Part shown: positions 3,452 through 46,539 of the stretch, one piece after another | Layout: every line of letters starts with the position of its first letter | Position numbering within the stretch: the stretch's first letter is position 1 | Assembly: GCA_051418035.1 (NCBI GenBank) | Contig: JBPRGE010000058.1 | Coordinates: 11,135 to 75,134, forward strand | DNA from: Candidatus Longimicrobiales bacterium M2_2A_002 | Lineage (GTDB): Bacteria > Gemmatimonadota > Gemmatimonadetes > Longimicrobiales > RSA9 | DNA length: 64,000 nucleotides | Direction: 5' to 3' | The notes under the pieces: model-generated | Told to the model about the DNA's origin: nothing | What the model saw: only the letters and a program-made list of their open reading frames with translations | Database searches by the model: none | Translations under genes and position numbers: made by a program

Positions 3452-4531
3452 ATGCTCCGCTCCATGTACGACGCCATCCGCGCAGCCGTCCTCGCGGCGC
3501 TCCTCATCCTCTTCGCCGCAGCGTCGATCGACGCCCAGGGGCTCAAGATCGCGGCCGGCGATGTGGGGCTCGCCATCGGCCCCGTCCCCGAGATTACGGG
3601 ACTGCGGCTGAACTTCCGTGACGACGCCCGGTTCCTGCGGGCGACCGGCATCAACCTCACGATCTGGAGCCCGAAGGGGATGGTCGACAGCGAGGTGACC
3701 GGGCTGGCGCTCGGCGTCCCGCTGACGGGCGCCGGGAAGCTGGCCGGGATCGGGCTGGGCGCGGGCATCGGCGTCGACGACACGTTCGAGGGGATCGGCG
3801 TCGGCATCGTCGGGCTCGGCGCCGGCGACGCGATGAGAGGGGTGATGGTCGGCGGCCTGGGCGTGGGCGGCGGCGGCTCGATCACCGGGATCGCCATCGG
3901 CGGGATCGGCGTCGGCGCCGGCGGGTCCGGCACCGGCATAGTGGTGGGCGGGCTCGGCGCCGGCGTCGGCAACGACATGAGCGGCGTCCTCATCGCCGGA
4001 CTGGGTGGCGGCGCCGGCAACACCATGACCGGGATCGCCATCGGCGGGCTCGGCGTCGGCGCCGGGGACCGGATCGAGGGGATCGCCCTGGGCGGACTGG
4101 GCGTCGGCTCGGGCGGGTCGATCGAAGGCGTCGTGGCTTCCGGCGGCGGGATCGGCGCCGGCGGCGACCTGACGGGGCTGTCGGTGGCCGGCCTGGGGAT
4201 CGGCGCGGCCGGGCGGCTGCGGTATGTCGCCATCGCCGGGATCGGCATCGGCGCACCGGAGATCACGGGCTTCGCCGCCGCCCTCGGGATCGGCGGCGAA
4301 TCCGTGGAGGGCCTGATGCTGGCGCCGGCCTACTTCCGGATCCGGGAGGGCGGCGAGCTGAGGGGCGTCTCGGTGAGCGCCTACAACGACATCCGGGGAA
4401 GCCAGAACGGCCTGTCGATCGGGATCGTGAACATCGCCGAGGAGCTGCACGGGCTCCAGATCGGGCTCATCAACATCGCCCGCAACAAGGAGCGCTTCCC
4501 GGTGCTCCCGCTGTTCAACTACCACCCGTAG
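3452..4531 (+). CDS. secreted Gly-rich repeat protein with C-terminal GLQIGLINIA motif (LA_2272-like surface-repeat family, tentative)
   Basis: 359 aa. Signal peptide AAVLAALLILFAAASIDAQG. About 12 tandem 16-aa units of the type GIAIGGLGVGAGDRIE. C-terminal part reads NGLSIGIVNIAEELHGLQIGLINIARN...PLFNYHP. Confidence 0.8.
   Translation: MLRSMYDAIRAAVLAALLILFAAASIDAQGLKIAAGDVGLAIGPVPEITGLRLNFRDDARFLRATGINLTIWSPKGMVDSEVTGLALGVPLTGAGKLAGIGLGAGIGVDDTFEGIGVGIVGLGAGDAMRGVMVGGLGVGGGGSITGIAIGGIGVGAGGSGTGIVVGGLGAGVGNDMSGVLIAGLGGGAGNTMTGIAIGGLGVGAGDRIEGIALGGLGVGSGGSIEGVVASGGGIGAGGDLTGLSVAGLGIGAAGRLRYVAIAGIGIGAPEITGFAAALGIGGESVEGLMLAPAYFRIREGGELRGVSVSAYNDIRGSQNGLSIGIVNIAEELHGLQIGLINIARNKERFPVLPLFNYHP
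3698..4312 (+). repeat. coding tandem repeat, ~48-bp (16-codon) period, ~12 copies
   Basis: Protein residues ~83-287 split into units TGLALGVPLTGAGKLA / GIGVGIVGLGAGDAMR / GVMVGGLGVGGGGSIT / GIAIGGIGVGAGGSGT / GIVVGGLGAGVGNDMS / GVLIAGLGGGAGNTMT / GIAIGGLGVGAGDRIE / GIALGGLGVGSGGSIE / GVVASGGGIGAGGDLT / GLSVAGLGIGAAGRLR, and so on. Confidence 0.85.
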
Positions 4532-42574: not shown

Positions 42575-44737
42575 ATGGCGACGAAGGAACCCAGGACGAG
42601 CAGCGAGGCCGACGTGCAGGAGGACGAGACCACGTCGGAGAACGGCCGCCCGGCCCATGGCCTGGATCGGGACACCCTCGTGGACTTCTACCGGAAGATG
42701 TTCACCGCCCGGCGTACGGACGACAAGGAGATCGGGCTCAAGCGGCAGAACAAGATCTTCTTCCAGATCTCCGGCGCCGGTCACGAGGCGATCCAGGTCG
42801 CCATGGCGTACCATCTCCGGCCTTCCAGCGACTGGTTCTACCTCTACTACCGGGACCGGGCGCTCAGCCAGTCGCTGGGGATGACGCCGTACGACCACCT
42901 GCTCCAGGCGGTGGCCGCGGAGTCCGACCCGGCCAGTGGCGGCCGACAGATGCCGTCCCACTGGGGGCGTCGCGACCTGCGGATCGTCAGCACGTCGTCG
43001 CCCACCGGCACGCAGTTCCTCCAGGCCGTCGGGACCGCCGAGGGCGCCTACCGGGCCGGGCTCGTGGAGGCGATGAAGGACGAGATCGAAGCGTTCGACG
43101 ACGACGAGGTCGTCCTGGTGACCAGCGGCGAGGGGCAGACCTCCGAGGGCGAGTTCTGGGAGGCGCTGAACACCGCATCGAACCTGAAGCTGCCCGTCGT
43201 CTTCCTGGTCGAGGACAACGGCTACGCCATCTCCGTTCCGTCCGAGGTCGGGATCAGCGGCGGGAAGGTCAGCCGGCTCGTGTCCGGGGTCCCCGACCTG
43301 CTCATAGAGGAGGTCGACGGCACCGACGTCCTCGCCAGCCTCGAGGCGGCCGAGAAGGTCGTGACGCACGCCCGTGAACGGAAGGGCCCGGCACTGCTCC
43401 ACGCTCACGTGATCCGGCCGTACTCCCACTCCATGTCCGACGACGAGCGGATGTACAAGACGGAGGCGGAACGAGAGGAAGAGGCGAAGCGCGACCCGCT
43501 GGTCACGTTCCGTGCGTACCTCGAGGCCGAGGAGATCGCCACGTCCGGGGAGCTGGACGCCCTGGAGGAGGAGGTCAACGAGCAGCTCAACGACGCCGTG
43601 GACCGGGCGCTGGACGAGAGTCAGCCCGCGCCGGAGACCGCGCTCCGCTGGCTCTACAGCGAGGAGGTCGACCCGACGTCGGACGCGTTCAGCACGGAGC
43701 CGGAGCTCGAGGGCGACGAGACGACGATGGTCGACCTGCTCAACTCCTGCCTGCGGGACGAGATGGAGCGGGACCCGCGCGTCGTCCTCTTCGGGGAGGA
43801 CGTGGCCGATGTCAGCCGCGAGGAGAACCTCGAGGAAGTGAAGGGCAAGGGCGGCGTCTTCAAGGTGACGTGGGGGCTCCAGCGGAAGTTCGGCGGCCAC
43901 CGGGTCTTCAACTCGCCGCTGGCCGAGGCCAATATCGTGGGCCGCGCCATCGGGATGGCGCTCCGGGGGCTGAAGCCGGTGGTCGAGATCCAGTTCTTCG
44001 ACTACATCTGGCCCGCGTTCATGCAGCTGCGGAACGAGCTCGCCACGATGCGCTACCGCAGCGGCGGGACGTGGAGCGCGCCGGTAGTGGTCCGGACCAC
44101 GTACGGCGGCTACCTGAAGGGTGGCGCCATCTACCACAGCCAGACCGGCGAGACGCTCTTCACCCACTCGCCGGGACTGCGGGTGGTCATGCCGTCCAAC
44201 GCGCTGGACGCCGCCGGGCTGCTCCGGACCGCGATCCGGTGCGACGACCCGGTGATCTTCCTCGAGCACAAGCACCTCTACCGCCAGGTCTACAACAAGA
44301 GTCCGTATCCCGGCCCCGAATACATGGTCCCGTTCGGGAAGGCCAGCGTCGTCCGGGAGGGCACGGACCTGACCGTGGTCACGTGCGGCGCCGTGGTGAA
44401 GCGGTCGCTCGACGCCGCGGCCCAGGCCGAGAAGGACGGGATCAGCGTCGAGGTCATCGACCTCCGGAGCCTGAACCCGCTGGACATGGAGACGATCACC
44501 GAGAGCGTCAGGAAGACGAACAAGGTGATCGTCGCCCACGAGGACTCCCTGAGCTGGGGGATCGGCTCCGAGATCAGCGCCCGCATCGCCAGCGACGTCT
44601 TCGAATGGCTCGACGGGCCGGTCAAGCGGGTGGCGAGCCTCGACACGTGGGTGGCGTACAGCCCGCAGCTCGAGGCGGCGATCCTGCCGAACGCGGAGGA
44701 CGTGTTGGCGGCGATCCGGGAGCTGGCCGAGTACTAG
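42575..44737 (+). CDS. 2-oxoacid dehydrogenase E1 component, fused alpha+beta subunits (TPP-dependent)
   Basis: ORF 42536..44737 with the start moved to ATG 42575. Alpha part: [28 protein letters not shown]. Beta part: [37 protein letters not shown]. Confidence 0.9.
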
Positions 44738-44793
44738 GCGGGGCGGCCATCGGAGGGTCGCCCGGGTTTCCGGGGGCGGCGGGCCGCCGGCGT

Positions 44794-44924
44794 GGCGCCT
44801 CGCTACGCTCGGCGCCGGCGCGGCCGTTCGCGTTCCTCGCCGTCGGCTTCGTTCGCGGCACGTTAGGTTCGCGGCGGAGCCGGGTGCGCTCACTTCGTTC
44901 GCGACGGCTCGCTTTGCTCGCCGC
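44794..44924. repeat. left arm of long imperfect inverted repeat
   Basis: Three blocks pair, in nested order, with blocks in the right arm. ggcgcctcgctacgctcggcgc (44794-44815) pairs with 45363-45383. cgcggcacgttaggttcgcggcgg (44854-44877) pairs with 45300-45323. gctcacttcgttcgcgacggctcgctttgctcgccgc (44888-44924) pairs with 45255-45291. Confidence 0.85.
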
Positions 44925-44936
44925 TTGGCTGCCTGC

Positions 44937-45182
44937 TCAGTACTTCCGGTCCAGCCAGCCTCTCCTGCGGGCGCGGGCGAGCCCTTCGAAATAGATGATG
45001 CGGCGGGTCAGAGCGCCGGTGGCCGAGACGAGGAGCTGGCGGAAGCGGGCCTCCTGCTCCGAATCGATCCAGCCTCGCTCGCCGAGCACGACTGCCGTCG
45101 CCCCGGCCTCGGTGGCCGACCGGCGAAGCGCGCGGCCTCCTGTGCACGTTTCCGGTCCTGCGTTCCCGATTTCTCCGTCATG
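44937..45182 (-). pseudogene. degenerate/truncated four-helix-bundle (23S rRNA intervening-sequence protein-like) ORF
   Basis: The frame of ORF 44937..45293 reads ...GRALRRSATEAGATAVVLGERGWIDSEQEARFRQLLVSATGALTRRIIYFEGL... This resembles the C-terminal two helices of that family (IArGSxxE...LGYI...). GC3 is high only in the last ~65 codons. The only nearby ATG (45181, MTEKSG) is in another frame. Confidence 0.4.
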
Positions 45183-45254
45183 GAGCCAAGTTGGGGCCCC
45201 ATCGCCTCCGCAGGGAATGGCAGGGCGCGACAACCTGCGAACGCGATCGGGCGA

Positions 45255-45384
45255 GCGGCGAGTCCAGCGAGCCGCCGCGAACGAAGTGAGCAAAAATCCC
45301 CGCCGCGAACCTAACGTGCCGCGAACCCCGAGCTCCGCGATGAATCAAAACGCCCCCCGCCAGCGCCGAGCGTAGCGAGGCGCT
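45255..45384. repeat. right arm of long imperfect inverted repeat
   Basis: gcggcgagtccagcgagccgccgcgaacgaagtgagc ... ccgccgcgaacctaacgtgccgcg ... gcgccgagcgtagcgaggcgc. The 24-bp middle block and the 16-bp core of the inner block are exact reverse complements of the left arm. Confidence 0.85.
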
Positions 45385-45417
45385 CGCCGCGAGCCCAGCG
45401 AGCCCCTAACGTTCCCC

Positions 45418-46539
45418 ATGACCTCGACCGTCCGGTTCTTCCGCCAGTACCTCCGTCCCCGCGCGGCGTCCGTCGCCCGTGAGGATACCGTGTACCGGCG
45501 GGGCGACGACGAGCTGCCCGCCTCGCTGTACCGGCCGGCCCGGGCCATGGGCGGCGCTGGCGCCGCGGACCGGGTGCTGCCCGGCTGGGTGGCGCTCCAC
45601 GGCCTCACGTACCGGGGTCGCCAGCACGAGTCGCTGGACGCGTTCGCCCGGGCGCTGGCCGCTTCCGGGGCCGCGGTCCTGGTCCCGGACGTGCCCGAGT
45701 GGCGTGGCCTCCGGGTCGCACCCGGGACCACGGTGGCCACGATCCGGGCGGCGGTGATTGAGCTGGACGGCCGACCGTTCACGGCTCCGGGCCGGGTCGG
45801 CGTCATAGGCTTCTCCTTCGGTGGAACCCAGGCGCTCATGGCGTCCACCGCCGGCGACCTCGACGGGCGCCTGGCGGCGGTGGCCTCGTGGGGCGGATAC
45901 GCCGGACTCCACCGCACGCTCCGGTTCGCGTTCCTCGGACGCCACGAGCTGGACGGCGAGACGTACCGGCACGAGCCGGATCCCTACGGTCGCTGGATCT
46001 TCACCGCCAACTACCTGACGCAGGTCGAGGAGCACGCCGACCGGGGCCCCGCCGCGTCCGCGCTGCTCTGGCTGGCCCGGGAGGTGGGTCGCAGGCAGAT
46101 TCGCGCCTGGCAGCCCGAGACCGACCCGCTGAAGGAAGAGGCCGGATCGCGTCTCGGGCCCGCCGACCGTGACCTGTTCGACCTCGTGGCACCGGGGACC
46201 GGTGTGGAGCCGATCCCTTCGGACCTGCAGCGGCTCGGAGTGCTGGCCGACCGGCTGGCCGATGCCGCCCTCGAGACGGACCCGCTCCTCGACCCCGGAC
46301 CCTACCTGTCGCGCGTGCCGGTGCCGGTCTTTCTGGCCCACGGCCGGGGTGACCGCCTCATCCCCTGGACGGAGCTGACCCGGCTCCGCCGCGCGCTGTC
46401 CGACGACCGCGTGCGCCATTCGCTGGTGACGCGGCTGTTCGCGCACTCGTTCCGGGACCGCCGGCTCCCTGCGCCGGGCGTGGTGGTCGAAGCGGTCCGG
46501 TTCGTACGGGCCGTCAGTCGGATGCTCCGTCTGATCTGA
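45418..46539 (+). CDS. alpha/beta hydrolase
   Basis: 373 aa. Nucleophile elbow VIGFSFGG. Late motif FLAHGRGDRLIP. Confidence 0.7.
   Translation: MTSTVRFFRQYLRPRAASVAREDTVYRRGDDELPASLYRPARAMGGAGAADRVLPGWVALHGLTYRGRQHESLDAFARALAASGAAVLVPDVPEWRGLRVAPGTTVATIRAAVIELDGRPFTAPGRVGVIGFSFGGTQALMASTAGDLDGRLAAVASWGGYAGLHRTLRFAFLGRHELDGETYRHEPDPYGRWIFTANYLTQVEEHADRGPAASALLWLAREVGRRQIRAWQPETDPLKEEAGSRLGPADRDLFDLVAPGTGVEPIPSDLQRLGVLADRLADAALETDPLLDPGPYLSRVPVPVFLAHGRGDRLIPWTELTRLRRALSDDRVRHSLVTRLFAHSFRDRRLPAPGVVVEAVRFVRAVSRMLRLI

Follow-up and report, generated by a model that had tools for sequence, protein, structure and literature searches.

Within a 64,000-nucleotide stretch of contig JBPRGE010000058.1 of Candidatus Longimicrobiales bacterium M2_2A_002 (hereafter the window), an element at positions 44795-45411 was found to occupy the spacer between a gene encoding a fused E1 dehydrogenase and a gene encoding an alpha/beta-hydrolase (Longimicrobiales, Gemmatimonadota). 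Its core is evidently the remnant of a gene of the PF05635/TIGR02436 family, the four-helix-bundle proteins of 23S rRNA intervening sequences (IVSs), and is enclosed by two inverted-repeat arms of about 130 bp. The element is best explained overall as a resident IVS-type cassette with inferred functions in its arms, an explanation to which a probability of roughly 0.6 is given; this figure blends the identity and history of the cassette, which are considered very probable, with an RNA-processing step that is offered tentatively and by analogy. The features of the element are as follows (window coordinates):

44795-44925: E1-side arm, an array of conserved GC-rich modules recognised from the inverted repeats and exact pairing counts; modules GCCTCGCTACGCTCGGCGC (44797-44815), CGTTAGGTTCGCGG (44861-44874), GCTCACTTCGTTCGCG (44888-44903) and GGCTCGCT..CTCGCC (44906-44924)
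44937-45123, minus strand: C-terminal remnant of the gene, 61 codons plus a stop codon (44937-44939), covering the end of helix 3 and helix 4
45123-45124, minus strand: deletion scar; compared to the intact gene of 444 nt, a net 199 nt is lost and the frame is shifted
45124-45181, minus strand: N-terminal remnant, ATG (45181-45179) plus 19 codons (MTEKSGTQDRKRAQEAARF), out of frame with the C-terminal part
45182-45253, minus strand: gene leader between the arms, holding TTGTCG-N8-CATTCC at 45214-45233
45254-45383: hydrolase-side arm, the reverse complement of the E1-side arm, block for block
45385-45411: extra GCGAGC-type module together with CCTAACG, next to the hydrolase start codon (45418)

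The gene remnant and its intact relatives

The core was aligned with the genes of three related loci, L002, L005 and L001 (related loci are numbered L001 to L022, L004 and L008 being the same locus). The distance from ATG to stop codon is 245 nt in the window compared to 444 nt in L002, and the lost stretch encodes helices 1 and 2, the start of helix 3 and the motif R-x3-S-x3-N-x2-E. A first-pass annotation, made from the sequence alone, had described a minus-strand frame lacking an in-frame start codon and the N-terminal half; this holds for the in-frame part, but the ATG at 45181 and 19 codons were found to survive out of frame, and it is the middle of the gene that is lost. The MTEK(P/S)GTQ start of the N-terminal remnant recurs in proteins P0002 and P0003, and a separate, in-frame deletion of 177 nt was identified in L001. 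GC content at third codon positions, described in the first-pass annotation as normal and high over the last codons, was 0.88 for the final 65 codons of the minus-strand frame, compared to 0.63 for its first 52 codons and 0.95 for the E1 gene. Fifty of the C-terminal codons are annotated by NCBI as hypothetical protein P0001 (50 amino acids, M2_2A_002). The gene copy in the window is dead, a pseudogene that is unlikely to yield a functional protein.

When the C-terminal piece was used in a word-indexed search, two proteins were returned, P0001 and P0002 (88 amino acids). An exhaustive HMMER search with P0002 then gave only three proteins, since P0002 is without the conserved middle, and among them was P0003 (147 amino acids), the product of an intact gene that lies between E1 and the hydrolase gene in L002, just as the remnant does in the window. 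Over 65 amino acids the remnant shares 85% identity with residues 83-147 of P0003, which bears out the earlier impression that its last codons resemble the C-terminal helices of IVS proteins. P0003 scored 42.8 bits against PF05635 (cut-off 33.8) and 43.5 bits against TIGR02436 (cut-off 24); P0006, P0008 and P0009 were also above the TIGR02436 cut-off. The R-x3-S-x3-N-x2-E motif, which is part of the family motif GxxRxxxSxxxNxxE (PMC3936711), is kept in the orthologues (GRSSLSVATNVGE in P0003) and is absent from the window copy through deletion. The window frame itself gave no significant match in the profile search against PF05635 and TIGR02436 that had been proposed as a check of its identity: no match to Pfam or NCBIfam at E <= 10 was obtained for any minus-strand frame or for the C-terminal 65 amino acids, and a phmmer search of the frame against the PDB returned noise only. 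This direct failure was overridden on the transitive evidence of P0003 at the orthologous position, on which the family placement rests.

Comparison of the family profile with the PDB identified 2gsc (XCC0516; E = 3.7e-6). An AlphaFold model of an intact orthologue (pLDDT 86) has helices at residues 23-44, 49-69, 75-101 and 107-139, and a Foldseek search with this model returned 2gsc (E = 1e-4, TM 0.82-0.86) and 2rld (BT_0352, 'S23 ribosomal protein family'; TM 0.84-0.89), followed by the Avd protein of diversity-generating retroelements (DGRs). The ratio of non-synonymous to synonymous substitution rates (dN/dS) of the intact genes was 0.14-0.26 (0.18 for L002/L005, 0.14 for L007/L019 and 0.22 for L006/L020), a range that shows purifying selection.

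Taken together with L021, in which an ORF-less inverted-repeat hairpin (ORF, open reading frame) of about 260 nt lies immediately 3' of an E1 gene whose product is 90% identical to that of the window, the loci form a decay series running from the intact gene through internal deletions to a bare hairpin behind E1. At L003 (positions 1-660; coverage 1.5x), an ORF lies directly before that of P0004, a partial relative of 86 amino acids; the arrangement may reflect a further frameshifted copy or an assembly error at low coverage.

Structure and conservation of the arms

The nested inverted-repeat blocks reported in the first-pass annotation were found to pair exactly as described, with the correction that block 1 starts at 44795 and not at 44794. 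Block 1 (44795-44815 with 45363-45383) is paired at 21/21 positions, or at 27/29 when extended to 44795-44823 and 45355-45383; block 2 (44854-44877 with 45300-45323) is paired at 24/24 positions and belongs to a perfect run of 27 bp; and block 3 (44888-44924 with 45255-45291) is paired at 33/37. Global alignment of both arms gave perfect runs of 21, 27 and 16 bp with poorly matching spacers between them, the weak complementarity claimed for these segments amounting to 75% over 56 nt in segment I1. Over their full length the arms are 82% identical, and they are the longest local inverted repeats anywhere in the window. In local alignment the 350-nt flanks of the core scored 127, compared to 22.7 +/- 2.6 for shuffled flanks and 23.6 +/- 3.5 (maximum 40) for 196 random flank pairs from the window. 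Folding of positions 44785-45420 as RNA gave -378 kcal/mol for the plus strand (z = -8.9) and -393 kcal/mol for the minus strand (z = -8.1), and no shuffled sequence was as stable; the long stem, for which such a fold had been suggested as a control, is thus far more stable than shuffled sequences.

The arms are built from short words of the GCGAGC, GCGAAC and CTAACG type, and the shortened copy of the right arm that had also been noted is the module at 45385-45411, which is 89% identical to 45255-45273 and is conserved in L001 and L002. No arm word or module was found outside the cassette in the 64 kb, and Tandem Repeats Finder reported nothing in the window arms. The recommended search for further copies of the arms gave none within the window; in relatives, both modules and intact versions of the gene were identified.

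Flank inverted-repeat scores of 46-211 were obtained for L002, L004, L005, L006, L007, L009, L010, L012, L014, L015, L019 and L020, four of them in unrelated gene contexts, compared to about 20 +/- 3 for shuffled flanks, and flanking inverted repeats are a trait of this subfamily. Modules of the E1-side arm recur in L001, L002, L004, L005, L010 and L019, and the 16-mer GCTCACTTCGTTCGCG is identical at 16/16 positions in the window and these six loci, that is, in seven distinct loci. Both GCTCACTTCGTTCGCG and the blocks are invariant despite synonymous divergence (dS) of more than 1.5. Likeness between the two arms is 78-85% inside one locus and 44-53% between arms of distant loci, from which it follows that the arms evolve in concert. 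When the window, L002 and L004 were compared in pairs, 68-73 columns were identical in all four arms as against 3-8 concerted changes, while the spacers drift. The conservation of the blocks argues for a sequence-specific function, whether alongside pairing or in place of it, and GCTCACTTCGTTCGCG and GGCTCGCTGCGCTCGC were named as candidate sequences for protein binding.

The arms of other loci differ in layout. Those of L009 have a 21/42-nt period with 4-8 copies per side. In L014 (3600-3850 and 4289-4380) an arm unit of about 52 nt is repeated unequally, with five copies upstream and two downstream. In the L006/L020 lineage the arms have shrunk to a single outer block, a 28-nt inverted repeat, which is separated from the gene by a long C/T-rich tract (CCCCCTCCCCCTCC...) at L006 95-175 and L020 about 640-700. 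In one genome, CAZSBL01, which holds both L010 and L021, the same modules occupy five intergenic spacers without any ORF (L021 6146-6400, 7600-7790 and 9190-9390; L010 880-1020 and 6700-6880). These modules are GC-rich, 15-28 nt long and arranged as hairpins or direct repeats, examples being GCGGCC-N3-GGCCGC, GCGAGC-N3-GCGAGC and CGCGAACGAAGTGAG. Their spread resembles the behaviour of repetitive extragenic palindromes (REPs) and bacterial interspersed mosaic elements (BIMEs).

Position, inversion and leader of the cassette

Synteny was assessed by tblastn using the window E1, hydrolase and DHH proteins as queries. A four-helix-bundle gene was identified directly 3' of E1 in at least ten distinct Longimicrobiales/Gemmatimonadota loci (the window, L001, L002, L004, L005, L006, L007, L009, L019 and L020). 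Among the loci with a gene behind E1, identities were 83-95% for E1 and about 50-85% for the cassette protein, which is consistent with vertical descent, and over the ten loci the divergence of the cassette follows that of E1. Because the same position behind E1 is held in ten distinct loci with divergence parallel to that of E1, the cassette looks like a long-standing resident rather than a recent insertion. Its presence is not universal, as L022 (E1 79% identical) has a 50-nt spacer behind E1 instead, yet carries one module before the hydrolase gene. Comparison of orthologous spacers, which had been recommended in order to detect presence or absence, has thus revealed the intact gene, the ORF-less hairpin (L021) and absence (L022).

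Related cassettes also lie in other, unrelated gene contexts (L010, L012, L014 and L015). Neither rRNA nor any other Rfam family was detected at gathering score in the window or in L009-L015, and at E <= 10 only chance matches were obtained over 44000-46200. With a degenerate family gene between long arms and no rRNA in these sequences, the proposal of a decayed IVS-type element outside rRNA was upheld. The further proposal that such cassettes exist or move independently of rRNA stood in its first part, which was already known for the protein family, since free-standing PF05635 genes outside rRNA are documented, for example in cas loci (PMC3936711); movement is hinted at by the contexts of L010, L012, L014 and L015. 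No relatives of the cassette turned up in plasmid, phage or viral collections, a metagenome scan for relatives added little, and no matches were obtained with PADLOC or PHROGs.

The gene runs antisense to E1 in six loci (the window, L001, L002, L005, L009 and L019) and in the sense direction in four (L004, L006, L007 and L020). A strict blastn comparison of L007 with L019 (dS 0.58) showed colinearity at the end of E1 with its outer arm (L007 100-219), at the far outer arm (769-827) and at DHH (866-999), whereas the core (278-700) is inverted at 85% identity. As the outer parts are colinear and the core is inverted, the breakpoints fall within the arms, the pattern that recombination between inverted repeats would produce. 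Three orientation changes are needed on a neighbour-joining tree of the cassette proteins. At least two inversions of the core have taken place through recombination inside the arms. The comparison of the window with L004 offers too few side-specific differences, and inversion of the core alone is resolved by the L007/L019 pair only.

A motif of the form TTGnCC-like-N8-(C/T)AT was identified 35-55 nt upstream of the ATG in nine loci (the window, L001, L004, L005, L006, L007, L010, L019 and L020), and is proposed as a candidate promoter of the cassette. A scan for sigma-70 promoters found nothing.

Proposed function, alternative explanations and known systems

In any transcript spanning the element, on either strand, the arms would pair into a long interrupted duplex containing the three perfect runs. 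The duplex would be a substrate for RNase III, by which the terminal stem of the 23S rRNA IVSs that carry the same gene family is cut, and cleavage would separate or insulate the RNAs of E1, the cassette and the hydrolase. Transcription of the gene probably starts in its conserved leader, which lies between the arms; such an internal leader would explain selection on the gene in both orientations. At the DNA level the arms would serve homologous recombination, by which the core is inverted and the arms are kept alike.

Besides the failed profile search of the window frame, a number of points weigh against this account. Cleavage by RNase III is proposed here purely by analogy, and the spacers between the paired blocks are poorly complementary. 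Asymmetry between the strands of the stem (G-U versus A-C pairs) is weak and inconsistent, the gene-sense strand being better in 6/9 loci, and with an internal promoter the gene's own mRNA would be without the 5' arm. Even with no function in RNA, the arms could be preserved by recombination and gene conversion, and conservation of the paired blocks fits sequence-specific sites at least as well as selection on pairing alone. No significant flanking repeat was found in L011, L013 or L017.

The main rival, itself unlikely, is that the arms are REP/BIME-like module arrays and the four-helix-bundle gene is their associated gene. RAYT genes are single-copy and vertically inherited, and are flanked by inverted short GC-rich REP modules; the RAYT protein is a Y1 transposase. 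By the same arrangement the modules here would be bound by the cassette protein or a host factor and would spread or shrink alone, long-range pairing being a by-product. The identity of GCTCACTTCGTTCGCG across seven loci, including the different gene context of L010, and the invariance of the blocks at such high dS would both be accounted for, as would the tandem arms of L009 and L014, the five ORF-less spacers of CAZSBL01 and the lone module before the hydrolase gene of L022. Dispersal is seen in that one genome only, however, with no module beyond the cassette in 64 kb of the window genome; PF05635 proteins are not known to act as nucleases or transposases, and their binding to the modules is putative. 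The cassette resembles the RAYT/REP arrangement in having a single-copy, vertically inherited gene between inverted modules and, in CAZSBL01, modules scattered through spacers, and differs in that its gene does not encode a Y1 transposase and that modules are not dispersed in the window's 64 kb.

The occurrence of both orientations among relatives, with breakpoints in the arms and three changes on the tree, would also suit a reversible DNA switch in which flipping redirects transcription from the cassette promoter to the hydrolase gene or to the antisense strand of E1, and in L006 and L020 the sense-oriented gene does point into the hydrolase gene. Such a switch is quite improbable: no site-specific recombinase or invertase was found among the neighbouring genes, the flipped lineages are separated by a dS of about 0.6 or more, so that the flips may be rare evolutionary events, and in L004 an aminotransferase gene separates the cassette from the hydrolase gene. 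The cassette is like the invertons in having a repeat-flanked core in both orientations (between genomes) and breakpoints in the repeats. It is unlike them in that its arms are long enough for general homologous recombination and that flips are seen between lineages only, and for want of a dedicated invertase it is not a classical inverton.

It is very improbable that the element amounts to no more than a large terminator of E1, or a hairpin stabilising its RNA, with a dead ORF enclosed by chance. The hairpin does start 57 nt past the E1 stop codon, and an ORF-less hairpin is present at the same place in L021, but no site was found in a scan for the terminator consensus, similar arms surround this gene family in unrelated contexts, and the enclosed gene is under purifying selection in relatives. 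Barely credible is a recent MITE-like (miniature inverted-repeat transposable element) or transposon insertion, as suggested in the first-pass annotation, for despite the inverted termini, the absence of the element behind E1 in L022 and the related cassettes in other contexts, there is no second arm copy in the 64 kb, no transposase, no relative in plasmid, phage or viral collections and no target-site duplication (the flanks GCCGGCGTG and TCGCCGCGAG share GC-rich tetramers at most), and a single-copy element as old as its shared position and E1-like divergence indicate is not a MITE.

The resident IVS-type cassette shares several traits with the ORF-bearing 23S rRNA IVSs of the Leptospira, Coxiella and Xanthomonas type, namely membership of the PF05635/TIGR02436 family, the 2gsc/2rld fold and a gene placed inside terminal inverted repeats able to form a stem. 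In both, the ORF tends to decay while the stem persists, and ORF-less versions exist; in the Coxiella IVS, RNase III cleaves a terminal stem of 28 bp and the ORF is decaying (PMC4990558). Unlike the IVSs, which have a single stem of about 28 bp, the cassette has arms of about 130 bp that are modular and interrupted. It also has a gene with its own conserved leader, in both orientations, and RNase III processing would apply to it by analogy only. It lies in an mRNA spacer behind the E1 gene and not in an rRNA gene, a location by which it is by definition not an rRNA IVS. BT_0352, XCC0516, the cas-locus copies and DGR Avd are of the same family and fold and, like the cassette, lie outside rRNA, but unlike these free-standing S23p/Avd-like genes the window cassette has no reverse transcriptase or cas genes near it. 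In the literature searched, the coverage of which was incomplete, no account was found of PF05635 cassettes with long modular inverted repeats outside rRNA, nor a description of positional conservation, repeated core inversion or decay to an ORF-less hairpin.

The locus bears on two questions, the function of the IVS (S23p) protein and the origin of rRNA IVSs, in that a gene-plus-inverted-repeat architecture is seen in an ordinary mRNA spacer with signs of a selected gene, vertical inheritance, repeated flips and stepwise decay to a hairpin. Processing of the stem outside rRNA, the arm modules as protein binding sites, and ORF-less intergenic hairpin arrays in Gemmatimonadota as relics of cassettes can now all be tested. 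A broader and rather speculative proposal is that IVS-family genes might generally live as invertible cassettes between inverted arrays of short GC-rich modules bound by their own protein, with rRNA IVSs and ORF-less intergenic hairpin arrays as two end-states of a single type of element. If true, the orphan 30-year-old 'S23p/IVS protein' would gain a nucleic-acid partner and rRNA IVSs would gain a source.

Further features were recorded around the element. The neighbouring genes encode CoaE-PHP, small proteins, E1 (the window protein being 100% identical to record P0012), the hydrolase, DHH, DUF4249 and a TonB-dependent receptor. A short GC-rich hairpin (GCCCGG-GTTT-CCGGGGGC) lies at 44738-44794, past the E1 stop codon and before the arm, and a similar hairpin (GGGCGCTGACGCGCCC) is found behind E1 in L007 and L019; the window hairpin may be E1's own 3' structure, external to the element. 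On the hydrolase side, a TAACGT box at 45407-45412 lies 5 nt before the hydrolase ATG. A TAnnnT box (TAACGT, TATCCT or TATCTT) was observed 5-8 nt upstream of this ATG in all loci read, other examples being at about 8026-8031 in L004, 876-881 in L006 and 8785-8790 in L022, and its closeness to the ATG suggests a leaderless mRNA. TAACGT is also present, facing outward, in both window arms (44860-44865, minus strand; 45312-45317, plus strand). Elsewhere in the window, positions 3791-4257 hold a tandem array of period 48 nt, in which at least 8 overlapping copies show 60-74% identity; it is probably a repetitive coding region.

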